DNA of 63,984 nt, filler included, from Candidatus Babelota bacterium (GCA_017999075.1; 10 parts of 10 records of this genome joined end to end with filler, not necessarily neighbours in it); one strand, 5' to 3'. Shown: positions 3,055 to 39,939, numbered from the whole stretch's first letter. The notes: generated by a model not told the origin, from the letters alone. Made by a program: numbers and translations.

Positions 3055-3442
3055 ACGAGACTTTTTTTCATACGAGACTTCTGTAATATTTTCTAAAAAT
3101 TTAAACCAAGTTTTATATTTTTGATATTTACATGCAAACTTGGCATAATTGCTGAATAACTGGTTTTTTATATTATCTATCTTGTTAAAATATGTCAATA
3201 TATATTTTTTTGCAGATACGCATGCGCGCTTAAATATTAAAAAAATAAAGTTTAAAAAAACTTGACTTAATCGGTATTTATAATTAATATTAAAAACTAT
3301 TATTTTTGTATTTAATTTTATCTGGATGAATGCTAAATCAGGGCATTTATTATAAATAACGGTTGTTTTAAAAAATATAACGGAAAATTGAAAATAATTA
3401 CAATTATGTACAATAATCTATAAAATTAATGGAGGTTGGTAT

Positions 3443-4344: not shown

Positions 4345-6668
4345 ATGTTAAAAGAAAAATTATTAAAAAATGCGGTATTGACTTTGCTCGCTGTAGTATT
4401 TTTTATAGTAACTGTTTTATTTACCACTAAAACCCAGAATATAGTACTTAATAAACCTGTTGCAGTAGTTGTTGTCGGAATGGCTATTTTGTTTCTATGG
4501 ATTATTCATTCTGTTGAACGCGGTTCTTTTGAATTGCCGTCATCTCCAGTCACTTTTCCTTTAGTGATGATGATACTAATAGGATGTGTAATTCATACCG
4601 CAATATCGCCTTTTAAATATTATGCGCTTGAAGAATCAGGCCGGTTTTTAGGGTATTTTATAGCCATACTGGCAATTATTAAATATATGACTGACATGAA
4701 AACCGTAATGAAATTTTTAAATTTCATTGTGCTGATAACATGTTTCACTTCAGTCTATGGAATAATGCAGATATACGGTATAGACCCTTTTGTTGAATGG
4801 GGAATGCCGACTATTCCTTATGTTTCGACATTCGGAAATCAGAACTTTTTTGCAGGGTATCTTGTAACTGTAATACCTATATGCATAGCAATTATATTCA
4901 CTTCAGGAAATTATACATTTAAATCTGTTTCTTTTTTGACATATGTTCTTGCGAGTTTTAATATAATATATTCAGGAAACCGCAGCGCTATAATAGGCTG
5001 GGCATTTGAAAATATGCTGTTTATAATTTTCAGTATCAGATTTGGCTTCTTAAGTTTTTGTTTGAAAAATAAAAAAGTTTTTTTTATAACAATAATTTCT
5101 TCACTTATTTTATTTATTTTGACTTTTTATGTGTCAATGAAACTGAGCCCTTATTTTGATTTACGCATGAAAACTATTTTTCAGACAAAATTCGGAACCA
5201 ATAAAGTCCGCGTTATAATGTGGACCGGAGCAGCGCGTATGTTCAGAGAAAAACCTATTATGGGTCAGGGAATGGGAACTTTTCAATTGACATTCGGACC
5301 AAAACGGCCTTCAAATTATAACAGGTCAGGAGTCAGCCATAATACTATGCATTCGCATAATGAATATATGGAATGGTTTTCGGAGATGGGGTTAGTAGGC
5401 ATAACTTTATTCTGGTGGATAATGGCGAGTTACTTTATTTTTACAATTCATATGCTTATAAAAGTGAAAAATAAAATTTTCAGGAATCTTCAGATAGGGT
5501 TGATGTGTTCTGTGTTGGGATTTCTTGTGGAAAATATAATGAGTGTTAACTACAGGTGGACTGCTCCTGCGTTAAATGCGTGGTTTGTTATGGGTCTTTC
5601 TGTAGCTTTATGCTACGCGGTTAAAAATGAAGTTCCGGCGTTACAACCAAGTTCTTCTAAAAAAACACAGTGGAACACTAATCCTGTAAAATATATTTTG
5701 TATGCAGGTTTGGTTATAATGTTTGTATATATGCTTTCGTTTTGTTTTAAAATGATAAAATCTGATTTTTATTTGAAAATGGGTATGGTGAGAGTTGACA
5801 GCGGAACTCCTAATGAACAAATGCTGAACGAAGCTGAATATTTTTTAAAAAAATCAATTGAGCTGTATCCGTTTGATTTGTCAAGTTATTATAAACTCGG
5901 ATTTGTTTATTTGCAGAAAGGTTCAAATTTGATAAATAAAAATCAGATGCAGGAAGGCAGAACTTTTCTGCTGAAAGCTCTGGATATGTATAATGAAATA
6001 ATTAAACTTGCTCCGAACTACGCACAAATTCATAATAATTTGGGAATGCTTCATAATCAACTGAGAAATGAGTTTGAAGCTGTCCGTCAATTTGAATGGG
6101 CGACAATTCTTGAAAATAATGAAAAAAACCACGAAAATTTGATACGATTTTATATTAACAGGTTTAATAATCCCGGAAATGCGTTTTATCACGCTTATAT
6201 GCTTAAAGAAATTGCGCGTGAAGAAAAAGACAGAAAAATAGGAATGTATTTATACAATTATCCGCATATTTCTAAAATATATTCTATTGAAAAAATTAAT
6301 GAAGATACAAAAAGATTTTATTCGGAATTTTCGCAGTATCAGGATTTATACACTGAAACTTTGAGAAATATCTCATCTATACGATCTATGAGGAACGATA
6401 ATAAATCAGCGGTAAACTGGATTTCTCTTGCCATTGATTTAAATGACAGCAATACGATTTACAAAGCTGTTATGATGGAATATATGATGAAATCAAATAA
6501 TATAGGTAATATAAAGAAATATTTTTATTTTTTGGATAAAAAATATTCTGATATTAAGTTTAAAGGAGAATTGTTTAAAAATATTCTTCCGCTGTTTAAT
6601 CAATATGCTCAAAATGGAACTAATAAACCTGATGACAGAGCTGAAGTTTATTTGTTGATGGCTAAAGC
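4345..6668 (+). CDS. O-antigen ligase (Wzy_C)-family membrane protein with C-terminal TPRs, truncated at contig end
   Basis: Many TM helices; STFGNQNFFAGYL, RVIMW..A..MFREKPIMGQGMGTF and HSHNEYMEWFSEMGLVG motifs; TPR-like repeats (YYKLGFVY, HNNLGMLH). Confidence 0.85.
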
Positions 6669-12926: not shown

Positions 12927-13434
12927 TTGTATAAAATTAATTTTGACAAGGTAATAAACAGAAAAAATACAAATTGTTCCAAATGGGATAATGCAAAAAA
13001 AAGATTGAATGCAGATATTGATTTGCCGTTATGGGTTGCAGATATGGATTTTCAGTCTCCGCCTGAAGTTATAAAAACGTTATGTAAATACGCGGCTCAT
13101 GGAATATACGGTTATACGTATATCCCTGATGAATATTATAAAACGATAATAGAATGGAATCGGAAAAAACATTTCTGGGATATTCCTCAGGAACATATAC
13201 TTTTTTCTCCGGGAGTTGTTATTTCTTTAAAAACATTGGTGCAGGCGTTCACAAAACCCGGGGACAACATAATAATTCAATCTCCGATATATCCTCCGTT
13301 TTACAGTTCTATTAGCAGTAATGAAAGGCGGATTCTTGTCAATCCTCTGATTATCAGAGACGGCAGATATCATATAGATTTTAATGATTTTGAAAAAAAA
13401 ATAAAAGATAAGAAAACAACAATGTTTTTATTAT
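12927..13434 (+). CDS. MalY/PatB family PLP-dependent cystathionine beta-lyase, truncated
   Basis: RKNTNCSKWD, LPLWVADMDF, HGIYGY and PIYPPF motifs; TTG start after AAGGAG. Confidence 0.9.
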
Positions 13435-14296
13435 NNNNNNNNNNNNNNNNNNNNNNNNNNNNNNNNNNNNNNNNNNNNTTAATTAATTAANNNNNNNNNN
13501 NNNNNNNNNNNNNNNNNNNNNNNNNNNNNNNNNNAAACGATGTTGCGGGATAGCAGAAAAGTAGTATCTTTCCGCAACTGCGTTTTACGCCAAGATGAAC
13601 GAAGCCGCGTCTGAACCCTAATATATTATTAGTGGAATTTGAATCGTTTCTGATAAAGTGAGATAAAAAAAATCTGAAGATAAAATCACAAATTTATAGA
13701 CTGGATAGCAGAAAATCAGATAAATTATTCTTGAGAAAGATTATAATATAATTGCACAGAGGAATTGCCGTAAGAAAACAAACTGTTATCAGTTGGCGCG
13801 ATAATAGACAAATTTAAATAATATAACTCAATATTCATTTTTTTATGGCTCTCTTTTCTGTGTGCGTTTTTTTGTTTGTCTGTTCTTGATAATTTTGTGG
13901 TAGCCGGTAACGGTAAGGCAGATAAATTTTCCTATTTTGCAATGCTCGCGTTTTTTGAACTCAAGATTTTCTTTGAACTTTGACTTTATCATTGCAGACA
14001 ATTAAACTGCACAGGTTCAATATTAGAAACAAATTATTATTATCTCACGACAATAATTCTTGTTTTTTTTAATGTAAATCTTAAAAAAATCTTGAAAATT
14101 TGTAATTTAATCCTAAAATTTTAAAATATTTTCATCAAAATTCTACGATTTTGGAAAAAATTTTCTACAAGTTTTTGTAAGAAAAAACAGCATAATATTT
14201 TAAAGATTTTCCCGCATTTCTTATTTTTCTTTTTTAGCGGTCGAATTTCATAAGAAATACAGGAAAATAAAGAAAAAAATACGGGGTTTTAAAAAA

Positions 14297-14331
14297 TACT
14301 TGTATAAATCGAATACAAGTAAAATACAAGT
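14297..14331. promoter_or_regulatory. Operator-like inverted plus direct repeat
   Basis: TACTTGTAT (14297-14305) N7 ATACAAGTA (14313-14321) is a perfect 9-bp inverted repeat; AATACAAGT recurs at 14323-14331. Confidence 0.4.
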
Positions 14332-14530
14332 TTTTTTATGTGGACAAATTATAATTTTTATGTTAATAATTATAATGTTTGATAAATATTTTTTGTAATA
14401 AGTTATATTACTGATTACTGATTTTATTCAAACAAAATAATATAATCTGATAAAAACACATATTCTATAAAAACATATCTTTTTATGAATATGCGGAAAA
14501 ATTAATTTCAGATTATTTATAGAACATTTT

Positions 14531-14735
14531 GCCTTGAACAGAAAACTGGCACTTTTCAATAAGAGAGGCAAAGCGAGTGCGTTCCGAATCCTAATTCGGG
14601 GCGTAGATACTACGCTTCTCTTATAGGTTATGCCAGTACCTTTGTTCAGGGCGTAGAGTTTACGCCCTTTTTTAATCCTCAAACAAACGGCGTATACTCA
14701 CATAAAAAAGATTTTTGAAAAGGTGAGTGAGTATA
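14531..14735 (+). ncRNA. Putative structured cis-regulatory leader RNA (unrecognised family)
   Basis: Nested stems 14531-14542/14641-14652, 14545-14551/14631-14637 and 14559-14569/14614-14624; inner hairpins 14584-14599 and 14601-14615; overlapping terminator; hairpin over the RBS region 14693-14701/14727-14735. Visibly GC-richer than flanks. Confidence 0.6.
14648..14673 (+). terminator. Intrinsic terminator-like hairpin within leader
   Basis: AGGGCGTA-gagtt-TACGCCCT followed by a T run, about 70 nt upstream of ATG 14740. Confidence 0.65.
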
Positions 14736-14739
14736 TAAT

Positions 14740-17700
14740 ATGAAAAAATTATTTTTCACGGTTTGCATTATATTACTTTTCAGTTCAATAATATTTTCAA
14801 AATCCATTCCCAAAAAACTTAATTTTCAGGGCAGAATAACAGACATAAATAATATTCCATATAATGGGATGTATAACCTGACATTCAGAATTTATGATTC
14901 TATAGATGGAGCCAATATACTCTGGACTGAAACACAAAATAATATTCAAGTTATAAAAGGTTTATACAGTATTTTACTTGGTTCAGTGAATGAAATAAAT
15001 CTTTTGTTTGAAAAAGAATATTACTTAAGTGTTGAATTGAATAATTATGGAGAAATAACTCCGCGTATTCCTATTGTTCCTTCTGCTTATGCGTTTAGAG
15101 CCATATATTCTGATACGGCTGTAAACACCCTTACACTAAACGGTTATTCAAGCGACAGCTTTATAACCACAAATCAAATTACGAATCTGACGAATAACAA
15201 AGCGGACAGTAATCATCAGCATTCAATAAGCAATATAACAGACAGCATTCCGTTTTCAAGAATAACAGGCGCGCCAGCAGGTATTGACACATCGAATTTT
15301 GTTTTAACAACGAACATCGCGAACTACACAAATTTTATTGATACTAATTCAGCGGATAAAAGATATTTGTCAATCAATGCTGATACAATGAATGCAGACT
15401 GGAATAAAATAATTAATAAACCGAATATAATTACGGATTCATCAAGTTTTGCAACATTATCAATTTTAAATTCTCAATTATCAATTTTGTCTGATACTTA
15501 CCTGACTAAAACTTCTGTAATTTCGTCTGGCTCAGTGGTTGGTTTAACTGCGAATTTAACGAATTTAACAAATAACAAAGCAGACAGTAATCATCAGCAT
15601 TTAATAAGCAATATAACAGACAGCATTCCGTTTTCAAGAATAACAGGAGCGCCAGCAGGAATTGATACATCGAATTTTATTTTAACAACGAACATCGCGA
15701 GTTACACTAATTATATTGATACGAATTCAGCGGACAAAAGATATTTGTCAATCAATGCTGATACAATGAACGCAGACTGGAATAAAATAATTAATAAACC
15801 TAATATAATTACTGATTCATCAAGTTTTACAACATTATCAATTTTAAATTCTCAATTATCAATTTTGTCTGATACTTATCTGACTAAAACTTCGGTGATT
15901 TCGTCTGATTCGGTGGTTGGTTTAACTGCGAATTTAACGAATTTAACAAATAACAAAGCGGACAGTAATCATCAGCATTTAATAAGCAATATAACAGACA
16001 GCATTCCGTTTTCAAGAATAACAGGCGCGCCAGCAGGTATTGACACATCGAATTTTGTTTTAACAACGAACATCGCGAATTACACAAATTTTATTGATAC
16101 TAATTCAGCGGATAAAAGATATTTGTCAATCAATTCTGATACAATGAACGCTGACTAGAATAAAATAATTAATAAACCGAATATAATTACTGATTCATCA
16201 AGTTTTGCAACATTATCAATTTTAAATTCTCAATTATCAATTTTGTCTGATACTTATCTGACAAAAACTTCTGTAATTTCGTCTGACTCAGTGGTTGGTT
16301 TAACTGCGAATTTAACGAATTTAACAAATAACAAAGCGGACAGTAATCATCAGCATTTAATAAGCAATATAACAGACAGCATTCCGTTTTCAAGAATAAC
16401 AGGAGCGCCAGCAGGAATTGATACATCGAATTTTATTTTAACAACGAACATCACGAGTTACACTAATTATATTGATACGAATTCAGCGGATAAAAGATAT
16501 TTGTCAATCAATGCTGATACAATGAATGCAGACTGGAATAAAATAATTAATAAACCGAATATAATTACGGATTCATCAAGTTTTGCAACATTATCAATTT
16601 TAAATTNNNNNNNNNNNNNNNNNNNNNNNNNNNNNNNNNNNNNNNNNNNNNNNNNNNNNNNNNNNNNNNNNNNNNNNNNNNNNNNNNNNNNNNNNNNNNN
16701 NNNNNNTCAATGCTGATACAATGAATGCAGACTGGAATAAAATAATTAATAAACCGAATATAATTACGGATTCATCAAGTTTTGCAACATTATCAATTTT
16801 AAATTCTCAATTATCAATTTTGTCTGATACTTATCTGACTAAAACTTCGGTGATTTCGTCTGACTCAGTGGTTGGTTTAACTGCGAATTTAACGAATTTA
16901 ACAAATAACAAAGCGGACAGTATTCATCAGCATTTAATAAGCAATATAACAGACAGTATACCGTTTTCAAGGATAACAGGCGCGCCTGCAAGTATTGATA
17001 CAACAATAATCGAAAATAGAATTACGAATTTGGAAAGTGATTCAATTGCTAAAGCCAATCGAGCGCAGAATACAGAGAACAGAGTGCAGAGTTTGGAAAG
17101 TGATTCGAGTTTTAAAACGTTACAACTTTCAAATATTAACTCTCAACTTTCAACTTTATCAGACAGTCATATAAAAAATTATCAAAGCGATACAAAAACA
17201 GGCGATTTGACAGTTGGCGATACTGTGTTCGCGCAATTCTTTGTAGGCAACGGAAAAATGCTGACAGGCGTTTTAAAATTGACCGATGTTATTTCAGCAG
17301 ATTCAATCAGCGGAGGAACTATAACAGGGAATGTAACTATAAATACCAATAAGCCGATAACAACTACAGATACTATAACAGCAACAAATTTTGTGGGAGA
17401 CGGTAGCGGATTGAATAATATTTCTTCTTTGAAATTATTTGAACAAATTATAAACTTGCCATCAAGAACATGGAATCTTAATTCTTACACTTCAACAGAA
17501 GAATTAATTTCGCAAAATATCAATTTGGGAACATATCCTATAATTATTTTAAAAATTGAATTATCAGGGCAATTTAATATTGATGCAAATGGTTATGATG
17601 CATCATTGCTTCCATCATTTAATCCATATGCAGTTGCTCACATTGAAATTGACAGTATGACTTTAATTCATCAAAATAATTCATACGCCAATGTTTCATC

Positions 17701-17953
17701 ACTAATAATTGAAAAAGGAGATTTAGGAGGGGGAAGCAATAGAAAAGGAATTTATTCTTATAATTCAGCTTCAAATAATCCAACATCAGAAATTAAATCT
17801 TTTAGTTATCCAATGTTTTCTTCTATTATATTGTCTAATTCAATTTTTTATTTACGATACGCTTATTCTATAACAGGGGGTATAGGACACAACGTTAATA
17901 TGAGTATAAATGATGTTAAAGTTAAATTAACTTATATAAAAACGAATTATTAA
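14740..17953 (+). CDS. Secreted phage-tail-fibre-like repetitive adhesin; interrupted by in-frame TAG (16156-16158) and a scaffold gap
   Basis: Signal peptide; N-terminal LNFQGRITD...TFRIYD...LWTETQ...PR..I...AYAFRA domain typical of bacterial fibre proteins; 126-aa repeats with KADSNHQH and WNKIINKP; FVGNGKML/FVGDGSGL fibre motifs; unique C-terminal domain. Collapsing the 99-bp duplicated gap flank gives one in-frame ORF of 1005 codons. Confidence 0.75.
15181..16990 (+). repeat. Tandem 378-bp (126-codon) coding repeat, at least 4 full plus 1 partial copy
   Basis: Unit starts at 15181, 15559, 15937, 16315 and (after the gap) 16892; near-identical copies. Confidence 0.97.
16607..16706. other. 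Scaffold gap (100 N, no linker) inside the repeat array
   Basis: 16508-16606 is duplicated at 16707-16805 (99-bp overlap), typical of an unresolved repeat. True copy number is unknown. Confidence 0.9.
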
Positions 17954-17999: not shown

Positions 18000-18743
18000 A
18001 TGAAAAAAAATTGTTGTTGTCATTCATTAAATACTTTTCAGCCAATGCCTGTAAATAATGAAATAGCGAGAAATGTTAATTTATCTTTGAGCGAAATTAA
18101 GGAAAAAATTCAAAATGAAAAAGGAATTGTTTATATTTATAAACTTAGCACAATTCGTTTTGAAAATAATCAGATGCAGCAAAAAGGTTCTGCCCCAAAT
18201 TTTCAAGGAGGACTAATAACACTCTGTACTTGTAAAAAATATTTACGAACATATTCTGAAATAAAAACTACTCCTCGTGTTTGGATAGCAGGTTTAACGA
18301 GTTCAACAAAAAATATAAAAAATCCATTTGGCAGCTTGTTTTATTTAATGAAAATAGGAGAGCGTTATGAATCTTTTTATGATATATGGTTAGCAAATAA
18401 TAAAACTGTTCAATCAGCCAAAAGTGCATGCAATAATGAATTGGGTGATTTTTATGAACCCAAAATAAAAAAAATAAAAGAACATTCTGAAGATAGGTTT
18501 AACTCTATAAATTATGAATTTCCAAATGAAAATCATTCACATATAATAAATGACGAAGATGAATGGCGCACAGATATTGAATGCGTTTATAATAACAAGA
18601 GACGGCCAGTATTATTAAGCGGGAATATAAATTTTAGTTTTTTATGGTCAGCGCCTAAAATTAAGTTTAATGAAGATATTTCCCGGGGTGGATTAAAATG
18701 TAGTAGCATAAATAATTTTTTTAAGAAATTAGAAGAAAATTAA
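18000..18743 (+). CDS. Nmad2-like (nucleotide modification associated domain 2) protein
   Basis: GSAPNFQGGLITLCTCKKYLR resembles the Nmad2 G.APNP..G.CTLATCKP.IR signature, followed by WIAG, LFYLMKI, GDFYEP, H...D and VLLS...F; GGAGG RBS. Confidence 0.7.
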   Translation: MKKNCCCHSLNTFQPMPVNNEIARNVNLSLSEIKEKIQNEKGIVYIYKLSTIRFENNQMQQKGSAPNFQGGLITLCTCKKYLRTYSEIKTTPRVWIAGLTSSTKNIKNPFGSLFYLMKIGERYESFYDIWLANNKTVQSAKSACNNELGDFYEPKIKKIKEHSEDRFNSINYEFPNENHSHIINDEDEWRTDIECVYNNKRRPVLLSGNINFSFLWSAPKIKFNEDISRGGLKCSSINNFFKKLEEN

Positions 18744-18797: not shown

Positions 18798-19748
18798 ATG
18801 GCTATGATTAAATGTAAAGAATGCGGTAAGGAGATTAGCGACAGTGTTTCAACCTGTCCAAATTGTGGAAAAAAATTAAAAACAAGCAAATTAAAATTAG
18901 GTTGTTTAACCCTTATTGGTCTTATAATTTTTATCGCTATTATAACATCTTTGCAGTCAGGTAGTGAAGAAAAAGAATTATTGGAAAAATTAAAAAATGC
19001 TCCAATTGAAGAAAATATTGATTATGTAAATATTTATAATCATTTTAAAATAATGTCTGACCATACAGATATTCAACGAGAAAACTTAATTAATGAATTA
19101 AATAATAAAAAAATCAAATGGATTGGCACCGTTTATGAAGTAACCAAACTTGAAAACGGATATATAATCCAAACTTCCGGCGATGACGATGAAAAAGAAG
19201 CAGGTTCATTTATCACGGTTGATGCCACAAAGAGTAAATATATTGAAACCTTAAAAACAGGAGATAGAATAAGAGCAATCGGAATATTTAGGGGAACTAC
19301 TGCAAGAAATATTAATTTAAATCCCGCATATTTATTAGAACCAAATGAAGGATTGCCAATAAGAATTAATGAAAAAGCAGAAAATAATCAAACACAAAAC
19401 AATGCTAATCAAAATAATGAGATTCCGCCATCTACAATTGCTGGAAAATATATTTTAAAAAGCGAAGAAGGTAGTGATATAAAAGGAGAAATGGAAATTT
19501 TAATTACTGCCGATAATAAAGTTTCATTTTCGATTGAAATTACTAATGATGTAGGGGTTGGAGAAATCGCAAAAGATGCGATTTTTATAGGAAATTCTGT
19601 TGTTTATGAAATGAAGAATGAAGATAATGGCGAAGTAGAAAAAGTTAAAATCTCATTTAATGATAATATTGCTAATGTAGAAACCGAAAATTGCAGAATT
19701 TATCATGGTTTTGGAATGAGTTTTAATGGGGAATATATAAAACAATAA
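18798..19748 (+). CDS. Zinc-ribbon, single-TM protein with extracytoplasmic OB-fold-like and beta-rich domains
   Basis: CKECGKEISDSVSTCPNCG zinc ribbon; TM helix; KKIKWIGTVYEV...LKTGDRIRAIG OB-fold-like segment; N/Q-rich linker; AGGAGG RBS. Confidence 0.75.
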   Translation: MAMIKCKECGKEISDSVSTCPNCGKKLKTSKLKLGCLTLIGLIIFIAIITSLQSGSEEKELLEKLKNAPIEENIDYVNIYNHFKIMSDHTDIQRENLINELNNKKIKWIGTVYEVTKLENGYIIQTSGDDDEKEAGSFITVDATKSKYIETLKTGDRIRAIGIFRGTTARNINLNPAYLLEPNEGLPIRINEKAENNQTQNNANQNNEIPPSTIAGKYILKSEEGSDIKGEMEILITADNKVSFSIEITNDVGVGEIAKDAIFIGNSVVYEMKNEDNGEVEKVKISFNDNIANVETENCRIYHGFGMSFNGEYIKQ

Positions 19749-21366: not shown

Positions 21367-22245
21367 TTATCCTAACATCTGAAGAACGCTTTGAGGTCTT
21401 AAGTTTGCTTGAGTCAACATTGCTTGACCTGCCTGCATTAAAATTTGTTCTTTTGTGAAATTCACCATTTCAGCGGCTAAATCAACATCTCTGATTCTGC
21501 TTTCAGCTGACTGTAAATTTTCTTTTGCAATCAATACAAAATTATAAGTATGTTCTAAACGGTTTTGAATTGCTCCGAGTTGAGCGCGCTGTTCAGATAT
21601 CTGGTTGATAGCTGAAGATAATAAAGCTATAGCGCTTTCTGCTTCAGCTCTTGTAGCTACTGTAAAAGCAGTAGTTCCGTCGCCGAGAGTGTCTATATTC
21701 ATACCGGTTGTTGAAAAACTTGAAATATGAACTGAATAAGTCTGATTGATGTTAGCGCCTACATGAAATACTAAAGATCCCGGGTTTCCTGTTGCTCTGT
21801 CAATTCCATATGATCCGTTTAATAAATATTTTGTGTTGAATTGAACTCCTGTCTGCATACGATCTATTTCACATAACAGTTGTGTTATTTCAAGCTGTAT
21901 AAATTCACGGTCTGAATCAATCAGTGTGTCATTTGCAGACTGAACAGCTAAAACTCTCATTCTTTGAAGTATGCTGTGCAGTTCTTCAAGCCCTGATTCT
22001 GCAGTCTGAATTAATGAGATACCATCTTGAATGTTTCTTGAAGCCTGATCTAATCCATTGATCTGTGTTCTTAATTTTTCGCTGATTGCAAGACCTGCAG
22101 CATCGTCTGCTGCTCTGTTGATTCTGTATCCGCTTGAAAGTTTTTCCAACGAACTGTTTATTCTGAAATTTGTTAAAGTTAATTGTCTGTGCGCATACAT
22201 TGCGCTAACATTATGCTGAATTCTTAATCCTGATTCCATACTCAT
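21367..22245 (-). CDS. fliC: Flagellin (292 aa, short type)
   Basis: SLEKLSSGYRINRAADDAAGLAISEK N-domain and AESRIRDVDLAAEMVNFTK C-domain; start at MSMESG after AAGGAGG (track start 22344 is too long). Confidence 0.97.
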   Translation of the reverse strand: MSMESGLRIQHNVSAMYAHRQLTLTNFRINSSLEKLSSGYRINRAADDAAGLAISEKLRTQINGLDQASRNIQDGISLIQTAESGLEELHSILQRMRVLAVQSANDTLIDSDREFIQLEITQLLCEIDRMQTGVQFNTKYLLNGSYGIDRATGNPGSLVFHVGANINQTYSVHISSFSTTGMNIDTLGDGTTAFTVATRAEAESAIALLSSAINQISEQRAQLGAIQNRLEHTYNFVLIAKENLQSAESRIRDVDLAAEMVNFTKEQILMQAGQAMLTQANLRPQSVLQMLG

Positions 22246-22254
22246 TTTAATCTT

Positions 22255-22418
22255 CCTCCTTGTAGAAAACCTAAATTTTATCCGATATGTTTTTATTGAT
22301 TTTACCGGATAAATTTTCTGACCAAATTTTAAAGATTTTAACAATCTTCAAATTACGAATGTTTAGCCCTCTTATTAAACATCCGTGTTAATAAAAAGCT
22401 TAATAGTCCACCTCCTTG
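22255..22418 (-). promoter_or_regulatory. CsrA/RsmA-type binding sites in intergenic leader of downstream flagellin
   Basis: ACACGGATGT in a hairpin loop (22372-22394); CAAGGAGG at 22411-22418 and over the RBS at 22255-22262. Confidence 0.6.
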
Positions 22419-22446
22419 ATAAATTTTTGGTCTTATTTTAATAATT

Positions 22447-23325
22447 TTATTTTAACATTGACAACACAGTTCCAGGCTGAACATTTGCCTGCGATAACAT
22501 CGATTGACCGGCCTGCATTAAAATTTGTTCTTTTGTAAAATTAACCATTTCAGATGCCAGATCCACATCACGGATTCTGCTTTCTGCTGTTTGCAGATTT
22601 TCTTTTTCTATAAGAACAAAATTGTATGTGTGTTCGAGTCTGTTTTGAACAGCTCCGAGAACCGCTCTTTGTCTGGATATTTCGTTTATAGCTGATGAAA
22701 GTAATCCTATAGCGCTTTCAGCATTTTCTCTTGTTCCTACAGTGAAAGGCGTTATTCCATCGCTGAGAGTATCAATATTTAATCCTGTAGTTGAGAAGCT
22801 TGATATTTGAACTGAAAATGTCTGATTCATGTTAGCGCCGACATGAAATATCAGAGAACCTGGACCTCCTGCGGTTGGAGGAGTAATATAATCTCCGCTC
22901 AATAGGTATTTAGTGTTGAACTGAACTCCGGTCTGCATTCTGTCGATTTCACATAATAATTGGGTTATTTCAAGCTGTATGAAGTTTCGGTCTGAATCTA
23001 TCAATGTATCATTTGCAGATTGTACTGCAAGTATGCGCATTCTCTGAAGAATGCTGTGCAGTTCTTCAAGTCCGGATTCCGCAGTTTGTATTAATGAAAT
23101 ACTATCTTGAATATTTCTTGACGCCTGATCAAGTCCATAAATTTGAGTTCTGAGTTTTTCACTGATTGCCAGACCGGCAGCATCATCTGCAGCCCTGTTT
23201 ATTCTGTAACCACTGGAAAGTTTTTCTAATGAACTGTTAATCCTTAGATTGGTTAAAGATAATTGCCGGTGAGCGTACATTGCGCTCACATTATGCATAA
23301 TCCTTAATCCCGATTCTGAACTCAT
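22447..23325 (-). CDS. fliC: Flagellin (292 aa, paralog)
   Basis: Same conserved flagellin N and C domains; highly similar to the downstream copy. Confidence 0.97.
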   Translation of the reverse strand: MSSESGLRIMHNVSAMYAHRQLSLTNLRINSSLEKLSSGYRINRAADDAAGLAISEKLRTQIYGLDQASRNIQDSISLIQTAESGLEELHSILQRMRILAVQSANDTLIDSDRNFIQLEITQLLCEIDRMQTGVQFNTKYLLSGDYITPPTAGGPGSLIFHVGANMNQTFSVQISSFSTTGLNIDTLSDGITPFTVGTRENAESAIGLLSSAINEISRQRAVLGAVQNRLEHTYNFVLIEKENLQTAESRIRDVDLASEMVNFTKEQILMQAGQSMLSQANVQPGTVLSMLK

Positions 23326-33347: not shown

Positions 33348-33447
33348 NNNNNNNNNNNNNNNNNNNNNNNNNNNNNNNNNNNNNNNNNNNNTTAATTAAT
33401 TAANNNNNNNNNNNNNNNNNNNNNNNNNNNNNNNNNNNNNNNNNNNN

Positions 33448-36400
33448 ATGGAAGATAATGAAGTGAATCAAAGGGGATAATACATATATATTTTTTATCA
33501 GAAATATATTTTACTGCAGGTTCGAACAATACAGAATACAATTTTTCAGCACTTTCTTCAATATAAGCTTTATTCTGAATTCTTATTATAAAATCAGTTA
33601 CAGAATTTTTAACGTCAAAATTTATAGGAAGTTTTGTTTCAACAAAATCGAATTTTTCTTTTGAAATTATCCAAATATAAATAAAATTTGTATCTGAATA
33701 ATATTCAAGAAAAACTGTTTCTGTATCAATATAATTTTTCAATTCTGAATATGTCAAAACATTAACATTAATTACAGATTCTATTTCAGGGTTTATAAGT
33801 TTCATTTTAAGCAAAGACTCGGAATTTTCAATTTCTAATTTTGAAATTTGTTCTTTGATAATATTTTTTTTCCATTCAGCAGGTTCATAATTAATCTGTT
33901 TGTTATAATTATCAATAAATATTTTATTTGATATAATTTTTGCATACAGTTTATCAATTTCTTTGTTGTTAAACCTGATTTTATGGTTTCCAAGCAAATC
34001 TATTAAACTTCTTGATTTAAATCTTTCAAGATATTCAAATGCTTTTACAAAATCTCCTGTTTCAATATATAAAGAAATAATTTTATCATAAACATTTTTT
34101 TTATCAGTTACAAACCCGTTTTTAAGTTCTTCAATTTTCATATTGCTTCTCATTTTTTCTATTATATCAATTGCTTCGCTTAAAAATAAAATTGATTTTT
34201 TTTTGTCAATTTTTTCAATGCATAACGCTTTTCCATAAATAGAGCGCCATTCAACTTCTTTAATTCCAATTTTTTTTGAAGATTCAAAGGATTTATTATA
34301 CCAATCTTGAGAAACTTCATAATTTTCTATTTTAAAAAACAGGTTGCCGAGTTCTAAAGCACATTTAACTTTATTTATATGATTATTTATTTCTGAACTT
34401 ATTGAATAAGCAGATTCAAGGCAATCTTTCGCTTTTTGGAAATCATTTAAAGCAAGATATGCTATTCCCAAATTTCTGTAATCATATCCTAAAGCCCACC
34501 GAGATTTAAGTTTGCGGTCTATTTCGATAGCCTGATTTAGATATTCAATGGAATCAGCATATTTTTTTTGAGAATTTAGAACGATAGCCATATTGTTTAA
34601 AGTTGAAGATACATCATTATATTTTTTTAATTTTTTTGAAATACTAACCGATAAATTAAAATAATAAATGGCTTTATCATAATTATTCAAAGTCCAATAA
34701 ATCAAACCTAAAGTATTATATGAAATATATAATTGCTGTTCATCTTCATTTTTTTTTGCCATATCAGCAGATTTAAAAGAATAATCAAATGCCTGTTTGT
34801 AATCGCCTTCATACCAAAATGTATTTCCAAAATTCTGGTAAATTTCAGGAATCATATATGTAATTTTTTTTTCGTTTACTATATTCAGCGCTTTACCGTA
34901 CATATCCCTGCTTTCGTTAAATTTTCCCAATTGCTCTAAAACCAACCCGATATCAATCAATGTTCTGGAAACTTTTTCATAATCTTTTTTTTCTTCATAA
35001 TATTCAAGAGATTTTCTGAAATATTCTTCTGATTTTATATAATCGTTAAGTCTCAAATAATATATTTTTCCAAGTCTTGAATATTGTTCTCCTAAAATTT
35101 CAATTTTATCAGTAGCAGATATTATATTTTCAATATAACTTACAGCATTTATATATTCACCTTTAAATTCATTAGTTTTTGCCAATTCTGTTTTTGCGCT
35201 AATAATAAATTTAGAATCTTGGGTATTATATTTTAATGCTTCATTAAAACAATATGCTGCCGAATCATATTCCTCGTTCATAGAATAAAATATTCCGAGA
35301 TTATATAATTCCCTCGAAAAATCGGTTGGTGATAAATTTGACACACGAATATATTCATTTTGATAAAACGCTGATTTGTTGTAATTTTCTGAATTAAACG
35401 CGCATTTAACAGCAAATTTCAGGTATTTTTTTATAAGTTCATTTTCATATAAAACAACCTTGTTCATACTTATAACTCTTTCCATATTTGACAGTGACTG
35501 AGTATAATTCTTTTTTTCAAATTCTTCAGCTGCAGTCTGTATGAGTTCATCTGTTTTTGTTTTTGCAAGTTCGATTTTTTCTGTATCCGAAAAATTTCCA
35601 GATCCGTAAACATATATTTTTTTATTACCGGGTATTGTTAAATCCCGATAATTGAATTTTTCCAAAGAATAATCAGGCTCATTGTTAAAAACAATATTTG
35701 ATATTCCTGATTCAATTAAGGATAATAATATACAATTAAAAACAGAAGAATTAATATCTCCGCACCTCAGTTTTCTTAAAATCAGATAATTAACATTTAT
35801 TACACCAGCATCTCTAAAAAAATTTATTCCTGTGTTAAATCCTGTTTTAAAATCAGCTATTTTTGATTTACTTATGTCTTTAGAATTCATTTCAAGATCC
35901 GCATCTATAATTAAAATATCATAATCTTTATCATTAACAAAATTATTAATGTTTTCATTGTTTATCAGTTTTATTCTTTCGTTGAAAATAGTCTGATTTT
36001 CTTTTGCTTTTATAAATCCCGTTATTGAAGGAACCAATATCCGATTTTTCCCAAACCTAAAAATATCGTCACTTTTATAATTAACTAATATTAGATAAGC
36101 GCCGCCGCCGATGTTATCTAAAACGTCCAAATTATCATTTTCTGTTATATAATTTCCGCATTTCATACCGTTTTGGTCTGCAGTTATTAAATATTCCTCC
36201 ATTCCGGTATTGTAAAGAATATTAAACTTTTTTTCTTCGCCGATTAAACTTTGAAAGTAATAAATATCTTCTTCTCCTGCAATTTTAAAAAATAGATTTT
36301 CATTGTGTTTCAAAACATAATTTAAACAATTCAAATACCTGTCTATATAAACAAGCGCCTGTATACAATCCTGTTTTTTTAAAAAAAAATTAATAATTTT

Positions 36401-39400
36401 ATTGTATAAATCGAATAATATTTTTTCATTTACAAATCTGTATCCGTTATTTTGAATATAAGAAACTTCTTTAAGAAATCCAGTGAGATTTTGTTCATAA
36501 TTCTTCAATTTTTCAATTTCTGAAGTATAATAAAAATTCAACCAAGTTATTGCACTTTCTGAAGACAATATATTGGAATCTGAAAAGTTTGATTCTACAG
36601 TTTTTATATTCAAATCATTTATTTCATTTAACAATAAAATCATTTTATCTTGAACTTTAATTTCTGAAAATGCTTCTTTTAAATTTTTAAGATATTTAAC
36701 TGCATTTTTTTTATTTTCATCCAGTTTTACATATTCATTAAATAATCTTATGTTTCCGGTATCAAATTTTTCTGCCGAAAAAATATTATTTAAAACTTTT
36801 TCTATTTCAGGAACAGAGTATGTAAATTCCTGAAAATAAAAAAATGCAAATGCAGATAATACCGGAAAATCAAAATATATGTTTTTTTTGGAAACTAATT
36901 CATAATATTTTTCCATTTTATAAATAAGTTTTTCTTTTTCCCGGCTATTCATATTTTCAAGATATGATGCCATCAGTATCAGATTAATATATATGCCATT
37001 GTCATCTTTAATGATTCCGCTTAATTTTATTGCAGATTCTGCATAAAACACAGCACTGTCAGTATTATTTTTTAAAAAATATATTTTTGAAATATTGTTG
37101 TATAATATAGCTTTTTCAAGATATAATCCGGGAGAATTTTCAGGAGTTATATTTTCAGGAATACATTCTAGCCGTTTAAATAACGTTTCGAGTGATTTAT
37201 CTTCATTTCCGTAAAGTTTATAGAATTCATTGGCAAGCATATACAAAAATTTTTGTTCTGTCAAATAATCAAGACCTTCTTCGCTACGCGCATCGCTGCT
37301 TTGATCTGATTGTCTCGTTAAATTAAATTTGATATTTATCAAAGCTTCTTTTTTAGATAATACAGAACTGAAACTTTCAGAATAATATTTTTCAGCTTCA
37401 TTTATTAGAATTGATGCCTGATTTTTCATTTTTAATTTTTCAATCTCATTAATAAAACTGCCCGGATCTGTCAAATAATTCATCATAAAAAGAAGAACTG
37501 ATCTTTTATTATAATATTTTTTTTGCGGAGACATATTTTCAGCTTCAAATTCTGCCGCCCTGTTCAAAATTTCCATTGCATTCGAATATTTCCCCGCAGA
37601 ATAATAAATCAAAGATAACTTTTCCATACACATTCTTGCAGTTTCATTATCTGGAGACATATTCAAAACTTTAATATAATAAAATTCAGCATTCTGATAA
37701 TCATTCATGATAAAAGCCGAATATGCGTAATTTATAAAAAAAACAATTTGGCGGTTTTTATCTTCTTCAAAAAAATTGTCATACATTTCTATTCTTCTGT
37801 TATAATAACGATATGCCATTTCATAATTTTTTATATGATAATACACATTTCCAATATTAGTTAAAAGTTCTGTTTTGGTTCTGTAATTTTCATCTTCGGT
37901 CAGCGCAAACGCAGTTTTATAATAATCAATGGAATATTCAAATCGGCCGTGTTTGTTTAAAACAAGTTCAAGTTGTTCATTAATCCATCCCAGTAACTGA
38001 TAGTAATAACTGATTCGGGGTTTGAGTCTGATTGATTCCAATACCATTTTTTCAGAACGTTCTAAATTTTTTTTCCAATCTTTTTTATAAGTAAGCAGTA
38101 AAGAAACCGCATAATTAATTGCGGCAGCCTCTTCATCTACTGCAACCCTTGTTTTTAAAAAGTTATCATATATTTTTTCAATTTCTTCTGTTCTGCCAAG
38201 CATATTGCCCAGTTTTATTAATTCACGATGGGCTCGCACATAAGCGGTATCAAATTCAATAAGTCTATAAAAAGTTTTAAAAGCTTTTTCATAATCTCCG
38301 GTTCTTTCTTCATATATACCTTTATCAAACATCTTCTGTTTGAATTTTTCTTCCGACTTATATTTTTTTTCAGACAATTTTGAATCGTTGTCAACAGCAG
38401 CCTTATAATATTGCAGACTTTTTTCATAATTTTCTTCTGAAAATAAAATATCGCCAATTTTTATATTTGCTTCGCTTATTTCCATAAACGATTCAGGATA
38501 ATTTTTTATAACATCTGTTAAAATTTTTTTAGCAAGATGATTTTCATTAGATAAATAAGCGAGTTCGGATGCCTTAAAAAGAAATTTGGAGGATAATTTA
38601 CTTATTCCCCGGCTCTTATCTGCAAGTTCAGTCAAATAATTTATTATTGAAATTTTTGCCGTATTTTTTTTTTCGTCTGAATAATATTGAACGACATTAT
38701 TTAGTGCTTTATCAGTAATCAGATTGGAATAATCATATTTTTTAAGAAGTTCAGTCATTATTGCTATATAACTATTTTCCTGACCGATATTTCTGTATAT
38801 TTCTGCTTTTTTATATAATAACCTTGCAGATACTGGAGTATCATTTTTTATATTAAAAAAAATTGTATCGTATAAAATAACGGCGTCAGTTAAATTGTCG
38901 TTTTCTGAAGTCAAGTCTGCAAGAAGTTCCGTTGATTTATTTCTTATTCTTTCATTTTTTGAATTTTTAAAAAGATTTTTAAGTGAATTTTCATAAAAAG
39001 TTTTCATTCGTTTTTTCTCAAAATTCGATTTATTTTCCAATTTCATATAATATTCCGAAACAAGTTTTATTATAAAATTAAGATTTTCATCCGCATAATA
39101 GTTTGACAATAAAGATAGATCTCTGTATTTCTTTAGAAATAAATAATAATCCATCAATCCGTCTATCAACTTGTATTTATCATTACTGTCAAGCTTATCA
39201 AATTTTAGTTCTAAATATTTTTTGATAATATATTTTTTCAGATTTTCATCAATTGCGCCTTCAGCTAAATTAAGCAGATTCAGGATATATTCTACTGAAT
39301 ATTCGGAGATAATTTCGGATTTCAATGATTCCGTCCCTTTTAATAAAAATACATCGCGCGAACTTCTTCTGGTTTTATGTCCTGATTTATAAGAAATATA

Positions 39401-39939
39401 ATACAAATTTCCGTTAATAATGGACGGATCAATTATATCAATATCAGAAACAGAACATTGAACTATTTGTTTTTTTAAAGAATTTACATCAACCACTCTG
39501 TATAAAATATTTGTTTTAGAATTATCATCGTACTCAGTGAAATATAATGATTTTTTTATATCAGTTGTTATCAAATAATTCAGTTTGCAGTCAGAATCAT
39601 ATATTTTTTTTATTTCACCGGTATCTATAAGTTTTGTATTTATACTGTAGCTGTCCGATTTTGTTATATAAAAAATCGACTTATTATCATTTGAAACACA
39701 TATCGAAATGATATTACTGTCAGTTAATATTTCTGTTTCAGAAAAATTTTTAAGATTTATTTTTTTTATTTTAGTTTCTGTTACAGAAATACTTTTTTTA
39801 TCTTTTTGGCAGAAAAATAAAAAGTTTCCATCCGAACTAAAAACAGGCATAAATTCTATTGTTTCATTGAGAATAATTTCATTACGTGAAATTATATTGT
39901 AGTTAGTATAACATCTAATTAACTCTATTTTTCCTCCCG
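33448..39939 (-). CDS. Giant PD40-propeller / TPR / CHAT (caspase-like) protein, open at both contig ends
   Basis: Frame is open across the whole contig (>2160 codons). PVFSSDGNFLFF PD40-like repeat, long TPR arrays, AFEYLERFKSRSLIDLL, and CHAT entry KLYSVLFEP...IIPFDSLHYLP. Confidence 0.88.

Follow-up and report, generated by a model that had tools for sequence, protein, structure and literature searches.

A terminator-bearing structured leader or small RNA of three-partner design, from a Candidatus Babelota genome and mobile elements of gut Bacteroidales

In the c4 RNA of P1 and P7, an antisense segment shares a transcript with the upstream and downstream sites (a1b1 and a2b2) to which it is complementary, and in the T-box the antiterminator bulge UGGN pairs with the NCCA at the 3' end of tRNA. 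ON-type transcriptional riboswitches, such as the pbuE adenine riboswitch, and the put and EAR elements of processive antitermination are further points of reference. The P4 immunity RNA (CI, with seqA and seqC as targets), as presented in PMC4825925, is structured and encoded in a leader, and one segment of it can match two sequences of its own transcript as their complement, one upstream and one downstream; it is associated with premature termination and belongs to a mobile element. Structured leaders and small RNAs of gut Bacteroidales and of their conjugative elements have barely been charted; in the available passages of reviews, Bacteroides had until recently just two known small RNAs, of which rteR of CTnDOT (RF04181) is one, and rteR is the only small RNA that those reviews tie to these elements. 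Here we describe a structured RNA that ends in an intrinsic terminator, at positions 14531 to 14673 on the plus strand of a 63,984-nt stretch of DNA (the window), in which ten records of a Candidatus Babelota genome (GCA_017999075.1) are joined end to end with filler, together with 12 further members of its family.

The locus resembles each of the better-studied systems in part. With the P4 immunity RNA the family shares a segment complementary to upstream and downstream sites, a predicted premature termination and an association with mobile elements. It differs in having no sequence or structure match to that RNA in Rfam, in holding its three segments within about 100 nt of one folded domain, and in its setting: on the conjugative elements the RNA lies downstream of a primase/helicase gene, and in the window its neighbors are chromosomal. 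The c4 antisense RNAs target a ribosome-binding site, whereas here the downstream site is the 3' arm of a terminator, and again there is no Rfam match; their family (RF01695) is listed in PMC2864571. Covarying stems around invariant unpaired nucleotides and a position between promoter and gene recall ON-type riboswitches, as does the sharing, in the window and its two nearest relatives (the window group), of the 3' strand of the basal stem P1 with the 5' arm of the terminator; this overlap is not family-wide, however, no coherent gene class or ligand emerges, and one member stands alone. The RNA rteR shares these Bacteroidales conjugative elements with the family, at a distance of about 0.6 kb in L031 and L033, but it is an unrelated 84-nt RNA on the far side of a RibD_C gene and shows no similarity. 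The likeness to the T-box lies in stem P2, the core of which (UGGY:RCCA) varies at a single pair, Y and R covarying as C-G in nine members and U-A in four, with both strands placed in hairpin loops in an alternative fold. It is a likeness of this 4-nt motif only; there is no Stem I, specifier or T-box sequence and no Rfam T-box match at E <= 10.

The window RNA and its relatives

Positions 14531 to 14652 form a three-stem rod, followed by an intrinsic terminator at 14648 to 14673, and the two stand far beyond shuffled controls. Folded as RNA, the plus strand of 14525–14745 (221 nt) reached −76.7 kcal/mol against a shuffle mean of −47.1 (z −5.77; none of 200 shuffles did as well), more stable by about 10 kcal/mol than the minus strand of the same stretch (−66.3 kcal/mol, z −4.93). 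The core of 149 nt folded at −63.1 kcal/mol (z −8.49), and the z-scores of the RNA domain ranged from −5.8 to −8.5. Three nested stems had been proposed here in a first-pass annotation of the window, and all of them were recovered in place, with the lengths and G-U counts that it gave: P1, 12 bp with two G-U pairs, between 14531–14542 (GCCUUGAACAGA) and 14641–14652 (UUUGUUCAGGGC); P2, 7 bp, between 14545–14551 and 14631–14637; and P3, 11 bp with one G-U pair, between 14559–14569 (AUAAGAGAGGC) and 14614–14624 (GCUUCUCUUAU), the latter strand being indicated by both the minimum free energy (MFE) fold and covariation.

The two hairpins described as enclosed by these stems are also present. One, CCGAAT/ATTCGG, is lengthened to 12 bp in the MFE fold, where it joins segment W (14578–14589, UGCGUUCCGAAU) to 14594–14605 as an apical helix. 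The other, GCGUAG/CUACGC (14602–14607 with 14610–14615), has two nucleotides in common with P3. The 3' strand of the apical hairpin, segment X (14594–14607), supplies the 5' arm of this small hairpin and contains, at 14599–14607, the first copy of GGGCGUAGA; the repeat of GGGCGTAGA reported at 14599 and 14649 is indeed there. Two near-invariant modules flank P3, the 5' module GAAAACUGGCACUUUUCA at 14541–14558, which holds the 5' strand of P2, and the 3' module AGGUUAUGCCAGUACCUU at 14625–14642, which holds its 3' strand.

The terminator, likewise proposed earlier, was recovered by a scan in which 14648–14668 followed by a T run was the sole such site in 13400–15000, where shuffles give 0.4. 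It consists of X' (AGGGCGUA, with the second copy of GGGCGUAGA), a loop, segment Y (UACGCCC, 14661–14667) and a U run (14668–14673), and the last five nucleotides of the P1 3' strand form part of its 5' arm. Its local hairpin (−12.9 kcal/mol, z −3.98) has the G+C-rich stem and the U run of an intrinsic terminator, and its sequence is kept in both copies of the RNA found in a related genome, G006. For the orthologous copy in that genome (L020) the MFE state is the full rod without the terminator, and for the window it is a shortened P1 with the terminator. A hairpin occluding the ribosome-binding site, TATACTCAC/GTGAGTATA, had also been proposed. It exists at 14692–14736 (14692–14701 with 14727–14736), by a Shine-Dalgarno region with GGUGAG at about 14722–14727, but it is weak (z −1.6, with 17 of 200 shuffles as good) and L020 has a different, non-significant hairpin in its stead (z −0.19), so that its membership in the element is unsupported. 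A supposed echo of the 5' end at 14677–14691 fared no better, having no counterpart in either G006 copy.

By comparison of sequences, the window RNA is one of a family found mostly on mobile elements of gut Bacteroidales. A covariance model built on the window alone (R1) identified, among 60 relatives searched, two copies in G006: L020, at the orthologous locus, where the RNA lies 82 nt ahead of the ortholog of the surface-protein gene, and L022, a paralog. Pattern scans based on the invariant modules yielded seven loci in a viral-contig collection, and BLAST yielded four Bacteroidales 'plasmid' records with the RNA; the loci from these two sources score 43–70 bits with covariance model R2. 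With identical copies counted once, there are 13 distinct members: the window, its two relatives L020 and L022, and a further ten carried by conjugative or mobilisable elements of Bacteroidales. This sample includes close relatives (L031, L033 and L038; L035 and L040). Contigs from wastewater and digester metagenomes provided further variants: one has four compensatory changes in P3 and one in P1, and another has a compensated base change, G>A/C>T, in the small GCGUAG/CUACGC hairpin. The sequencing runs listed for the locus were DNA runs, with no RNA run among them, and their contigs showed sequence variants and no transcript ends. A metagenome scan yielded nothing beyond exact copies of the two G006 loci.

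Other searches gave little. A pattern search of 400 relatives of G001 was positive for G006 alone, BLAST of the element against 5 related genomes gave chance matches only, and a first, too strict collection pattern had no match in genome contigs or viral contigs. There was no match for the window, L031 or L034 RNAs in a curated phage collection and none for L032 or L034 in a plasmid collection, in which the window RNA had only a 29-nt match, to the invariant module. Two weak matches were discounted, a single one with R2 among 151 genomes of the phylum of G002 (22.5 bits, E 0.065) and one in G034 (18.5 bits, E 0.58).

Collecting homologous leaders had been suggested as a check on the proposal, and the leaders collected covary strongly. 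On the covariance-model alignment of the 13 members, pairing holds in 95.7% of 487 cells of the rod, and both partners vary in 30 of its 44 pairs; none of 500 shuffles reached these values, while slid partners were 37–44% paired. The pairs changing on both sides are spread over P1 (8 of 12), P3 (11 of 13) and the apical helix (10 of 12), G-U pairs in the rod are conserved, and 11 pairs already change on both sides among the three sequences of the window group alone. Alignment-free anchor counts agree for P1, with 135 of 156 cells paired and three to five pair types at six positions. The modules GAAAACUGGYANUUUUCA (18 nt) and GGYAURCCAGURCCUC (about 17 nt) are near-identical in all 13 members, from two or more phyla, so that the family combines covarying stems with invariant unpaired nucleotides in the manner of an aptamer. 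Judged by eye, a leader peptide was rejected because the reading frame over the invariant module differs among members, and a sigma-54 promoter, a K-turn, an attC site and a hairpin ribozyme were rejected because their defining nucleotides are missing or not conserved.

The first-pass annotation had considered the RNA unrecognised and outside the known riboswitches. This agrees with Rfam 15 (4227 models), which gave no match at gathering score across the whole window and, in a local scan over the element, only matches with E of at least 1.9 (best rliI, 12.2 bits against a cut-off of 45, E 2.2). Around the L031 copy all matches had E of at least 4.9, and the sole match on L031–L033 was rteR, located elsewhere than the RNA. 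No description of this RNA was found in the full-text literature, of which the supplementary tables (those of B. thetaiotaomicron transcriptomes and of Weinberg 2010) may list it; nor is it described in the accessible portions of PMC7366714, PMC10994844, PMC13750123, PMC2864571 and PMC5587801. The 'Bacteroides-2' motif (Weinberg et al., 2010) is given in the accessible portion of PMC2864571 as a Bacteroides non-coding RNA candidate without an Rfam accession. The family is new to Rfam; it may have been listed before under another name, as this motif or in the B. thetaiotaomicron small-RNA tables. It constitutes a new family of structured leader or small RNAs with a terminator and an unusual three-partner design.

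Alternative pairings around the terminator

Two alternative pairing sets are, on comparative grounds, both kept in evolution: the rod, with a local X':Y hairpin in most members, and a second set made up of X:Y and two small hairpins, H5 and H3. Y, the segment that ends at the U run, is the complement of X in all 13 members despite their differing sequences (GGGCGUA with UACGCCC in the window group, AGCGUGGC with GCCACGCU in L033, GCGUGGG with CCCACGC in L032 and GGUACGG with CCGUGCC in L037). That the first copy of GGGCGTAGA might also pair with the 3' arm of the terminator, in the style of P4 CI or P1 C4, had been the most speculative remark of the first-pass annotation. With compensatory changes across all members, it is the feature of that annotation best backed by comparison.

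The X:Y duplex of the window has an energy of −15.6 kcal/mol, which only 0.006 of shuffled Y equal; across the family the duplexes range from −11.7 to −17.4 kcal/mol, and the fraction of shuffled Y as good is at most 0.054 in 12 of the 13 members and 0.22 in L034. X pairs with the upstream W, in the apical helix, as well as with the downstream Y, and Y resembles W. The X:Y helix is 98.1% paired, five of its eight pairs changing on both sides. RNAalifold, run on a plain MAFFT alignment, selects H5, H3 and X:Y, a set in which 98.0% of 247 cells are paired. H5 joins 14541–14545 to 14553–14557 around the loop CUGGCAC within the 5' module, and H3 joins GGUAU to GUACC around the loop GCCA within the 3' module (consensus GGYAU[RCCA]GURCC, 75 of 78 cells paired). 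Both are compatible with P1 and P3, and with them the rod would become a four-way junction in which the loops UGGY and RCCA are still able to pair. In L022 the X:Y state is the MFE; there P1 and P3 are degraded, retaining by eye 7 of 12 and 7 of 11 pairs.

A copy of X (X') lies just 5' of Y in 10 of the 13 members, giving a local terminator hairpin of −5.5 to −16.0 kcal/mol. The remaining three, L032, L034 and L037, lack such a hairpin (−0.7, −3.7 and −1.8 kcal/mol, which is shuffle level) and yet retain X and Y. In all 13 members the 3' helix is succeeded, on the same strand, by a U/T run.

Genomic settings and possible modes of action

A co-oriented open reading frame (ORF) starts about 31–155 nt past the U run in 12 of the 13 members. 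In records of Parabacteroides distasonis and Bacteroides ovatus, the gene order is RteC, a helix-turn-helix (HTH) protein, a bifunctional primase/helicase, the unannotated RNA, a 'dihydrofolate reductase family protein' and a convergent topoisomerase III. L031 and L033 have the same order, with rteR nearby, beside the topoisomerase III gene (L031 11480–11560, minus strand, 96 bits; L033 2104–2184, plus strand, 95 bits), and its presence indicates that these 'viral' contigs are CTnDOT-type conjugative elements and not phages. The gene behind the RNA encodes RibD_C in L031, L035 and L036 according to Pfam, in L038 and L039 according to record annotation, and in L033, which is near-identical to L031; L040, with a similar 163-aa ORF, is probably a seventh case. 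The RNA is linked to this gene on different element backbones, that of L036 being a differing one that carries two tyrosine integrases. On L037, a mobilisable element encoding a relaxase, a DUF5906/VapE-like protein and a methylase, the RNA lies ahead of small unknown proteins. The L022 RNA precedes a 262-aa unknown protein, an actin/Hsp70-like ATPase and a HerA/FtsK-like ATPase. The operon behind this paralogous RNA (L028 7400–13008), in which the 262-aa protein is a membrane protein, the two ATPases have 512 and 864 aa and a 223-aa protein follows, has a layout like that of a defence system.

Promoter-like sites were found by eye upstream of the RNA, TTGACT-16-TGGTATAAT in L020 and TTGAAT-16-TATAAT in L022, and L031 and L033 carry upstream a TAnnTTTG site, which we take to be a promoter-like motif. 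In Bacteroidales members the transcript probably starts about 85 nt 5' of P1, after this site. Directly 5' of P1, TTATATATAACATA and a small hairpin ACGUUCGC(N)GAACGU are common to L031 (10725–10762), L033, L035, L036, L038 and L040, and L037 has a compensated form of the hairpin, GCGUU..AACGC. A conserved inverted repeat, (A)ACAGTTT...AAACTGT(T), lies between the U run and the RibD_C start (L031 10905–10959; L039, about 6140–6193; L035 as oriented, about 3172–3222). It could be an operator or a translation-control hairpin, and one arm is like the AAACUG of the 5' module.

We favor, with a rough probability of 0.4, a bistable cis-acting leader that gates the intrinsic terminator in front of an accessory ('cargo') gene. 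Which partner Y receives would depend on the state of the upstream domain, and the polymerase would accordingly stop at the U run or continue into the gene behind it. In the window group, X' would also be sequestered by the full 12-bp P1, making the complete rod the read-through state; where X' is absent, X:Y would serve as the terminator helix. Candidate triggers could be a small molecule, RNA polymerase or a tRNA end; since the invariant core is identical across phyla, the trigger should be something universal. The terminated RNA, of about 145 nt, may additionally act in trans.

A number of observations weigh against such a leader. The covariance-model alignment was fitted to the rod and hence leans toward it. 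A local terminator is possible in 10 of the 13 members whatever the upstream domain does, and the competition between P1 and the terminator that had been proposed at the outset holds only in part: the 5-nt overlap is found in the window, L020 and L022, but in the other ten members, of Bacteroidales type, P1 and the terminator are adjacent without it. H5 (GAAAA[CUGGYAN]UUUUC) is paired in 65 of 65 cells but never covaries, and the support for H3 comes from one covarying pair (U-A in ten members, C-G in two of different lineages and U-G in one). As the two positions of that pair lie in different internal loops of the rod, the rod cannot explain their covariation, for which a hand count puts chance coincidence at about 0.04, a suggestive value only. 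Nested X:Y pairing excludes P1–P3 and costs 9–32 kcal/mol relative to the rod in 12 of the 13 members, so that a switch would need a factor, kinetics or a pseudoknot geometry. There is no clear promoter in the window itself. The genes downstream are mixed (a tail-repeat surface protein, a HerA-like/actin-like ATPase operon, RibD_C, small secreted proteins), where those behind a riboswitch would belong to one coherent pathway, and L034 has no co-oriented gene downstream, as for a free-standing RNA gene.

That last member leads to the main rival, which we consider possible, if doubtful: a free-standing small RNA gene of mobile elements that has a promoter and a terminator of its own and acts in trans. 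Gene adjacency would then be incidental, and the X/Y and H5/H3 alternatives would serve maturation or target-induced refolding. L034 lies beside a Bacteroidetes-type integrase, between two opposite-strand genes and convergent with an XRE gene, as such a gene might; the strong local terminators of most members, the heterogeneity of the genes downstream and the presence of a known small RNA, rteR, nearby on the CTnDOT-type carriers point the same way, and the inverted repeat between the terminator and the RibD_C gene could, by eye, be a separate control region. This sits poorly with the co-orientation of 12 of the 13 members with an ORF 31–155 nt downstream, with the three members that have no terminator hairpin of their own, and with internal-loop nucleotides invariant across phyla, which is unusual for base-pairing small RNAs, and the proposed RNA is without an identified target. 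The leader and the stand-alone RNA are not mutually exclusive, as the terminated RNA could act in trans too. It is unlikely, though conceivable for an element-borne family, that the RNA is a self-directed antisense system like P4 CI, in which X of the accumulated RNA would pair in trans with W or Y of nascent copies and enforce termination, the cargo gene being active for a short time only, upon entry of the element into a naive cell. The complementarity of X to upstream W and downstream Y repeats the seqA-CI-seqC layout of P4 as set out in PMC4825925, and where no local hairpin is present Y requires a partner. Set against this, there is no Rfam match to C4, IsrK or SeqA-type families, the mature rod hides X inside a stem, the window locus lies in the chromosome, where no element genes were seen around it, and both processing and action in trans remain hypothetical.

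Two further explanations appear considerably weaker. Processive antitermination of the put/EAR kind, with the invariant module binding RNA polymerase and read-through of the terminator into foreign cargo genes, would suit the position of the RNA just after a promoter and just before a terminator, the varied cargo, and an invariance across phyla that calls for a universal partner such as RNA polymerase; it leaves the X:Y covariation and the stand-alone L034 unexplained and shows no likeness to any Rfam antitermination family, and we regard it as very unlikely. No more weight can be given to a role of the structure as single-stranded DNA, be it a lagging-strand origin or another conjugative-transfer site, in place of RNA. 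Most members do lie on conjugative or mobilisable elements, beside primase/helicase, relaxase or integrase genes, and DNA-parameter folds beat shuffles about equally on both strands (−32.1 vs −29.3 and −29.4 vs −26.8 kcal/mol). The U/T run that follows the 3' helix on the same strand in every member, the promoter-like sites upstream, the co-orientation of 12 of the 13 with the next gene and the many conserved G-U pairs all speak for RNA, and the window and L020 loci are chromosomal, without transfer genes.

Returning to the cis-acting leader, a bolder form of it, which we regard as improbable, is a new protein-independent class of RNA switch, carried between bacterial phyla by mobile elements. 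Its core would toggle between the 7-bp helix and two kissing hairpins with UGGY and RCCA loops, and would sense a universal cellular component, such as RNA polymerase, a small molecule or uncharged tRNA, whose free NCCA end the RCCA loop would mimic. The 3' arm of the terminator would be given either to its local partner or to the apical strand, gating the cargo gene in a new host. Three unusual traits in combination, namely a core that is the same in Bacteroidota elements and in a thinly sampled candidate phylum, covariation backing two incompatible folds, and a terminator 3' arm that always matches a distant apical strand, make the family a good candidate for a new class of regulatory RNA controlling cargo genes. 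The carrier elements are known to spread accessory and resistance genes, and for their annotation the RNA accounts for a recurrent unannotated gap of 0.4 kb between the primase/helicase and RibD_C genes in CTnDOT-type elements.

Surroundings of the window locus

In the AT-rich scaffold of the window, the element forms a G+C island of 44–45% amid intergenic DNA of 13–26% G+C. The ATG at 14740 is the start codon of a secreted repeat protein that contains phage-tail-repeat (PF12789) units, its gene (14740–17953, plus strand) being read as three ORFs (14740–16158, 16243–16716 and 16721–17953), broken by its repeats and by a scaffold gap, an N run at about 16600–16710 inside it. The protein carries tandem near-identical repeats of about 125 aa (LTNLTNNKADSNHQH...SRITGAPAGIDTSNF) that match PF12789, and its N-terminal domain is conserved in the G006 ortholog. 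Just past it are an Nmad2 (nucleotide modification associated domain 2) protein at 18000–18743 and a zinc-ribbon protein at 18798–19748.

On the left, N runs at 13435–13489 and 13491–13535 cut an aminotransferase ORF and part the RNA locus from polysaccharide-export genes. Between these gaps and the RNA lies about 1 kb of AT-rich DNA without long ORFs (13536–14530), which contains a 21-codon HTH-like remnant (about 13764–13829, plus strand), a 52-aa basic ORF (13843–14001, minus strand) and, at 13536–13640, a G+C-richer patch that may be structured.

The wider surroundings are chromosomal, with polysaccharide export genes, two flagellins, RuvC and LplA, and no mobile-element genes were seen near the locus. 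The flagellin genes stand in tandem at 21367–23325 on the minus strand and are followed by RuvC, LplA-like and STAS genes, an arrangement which also indicates a chromosomal region. The LeuA-like protein of the window has 73% identity to its counterpart in an unclassified metagenome-assembled genome (MAG; L001) and 51–57% identity to those of Endomicrobiaceae/Elusimicrobiaceae MAGs, one Planctomycetota MAG and one cyanobacterium. The taxonomic group of its closest genomes, a sparsely sampled candidate phylum, is represented by only three of the genomes searched. Farther along, at 33392–39850 on the minus strand, the window contains an ORF of 2152 aa.

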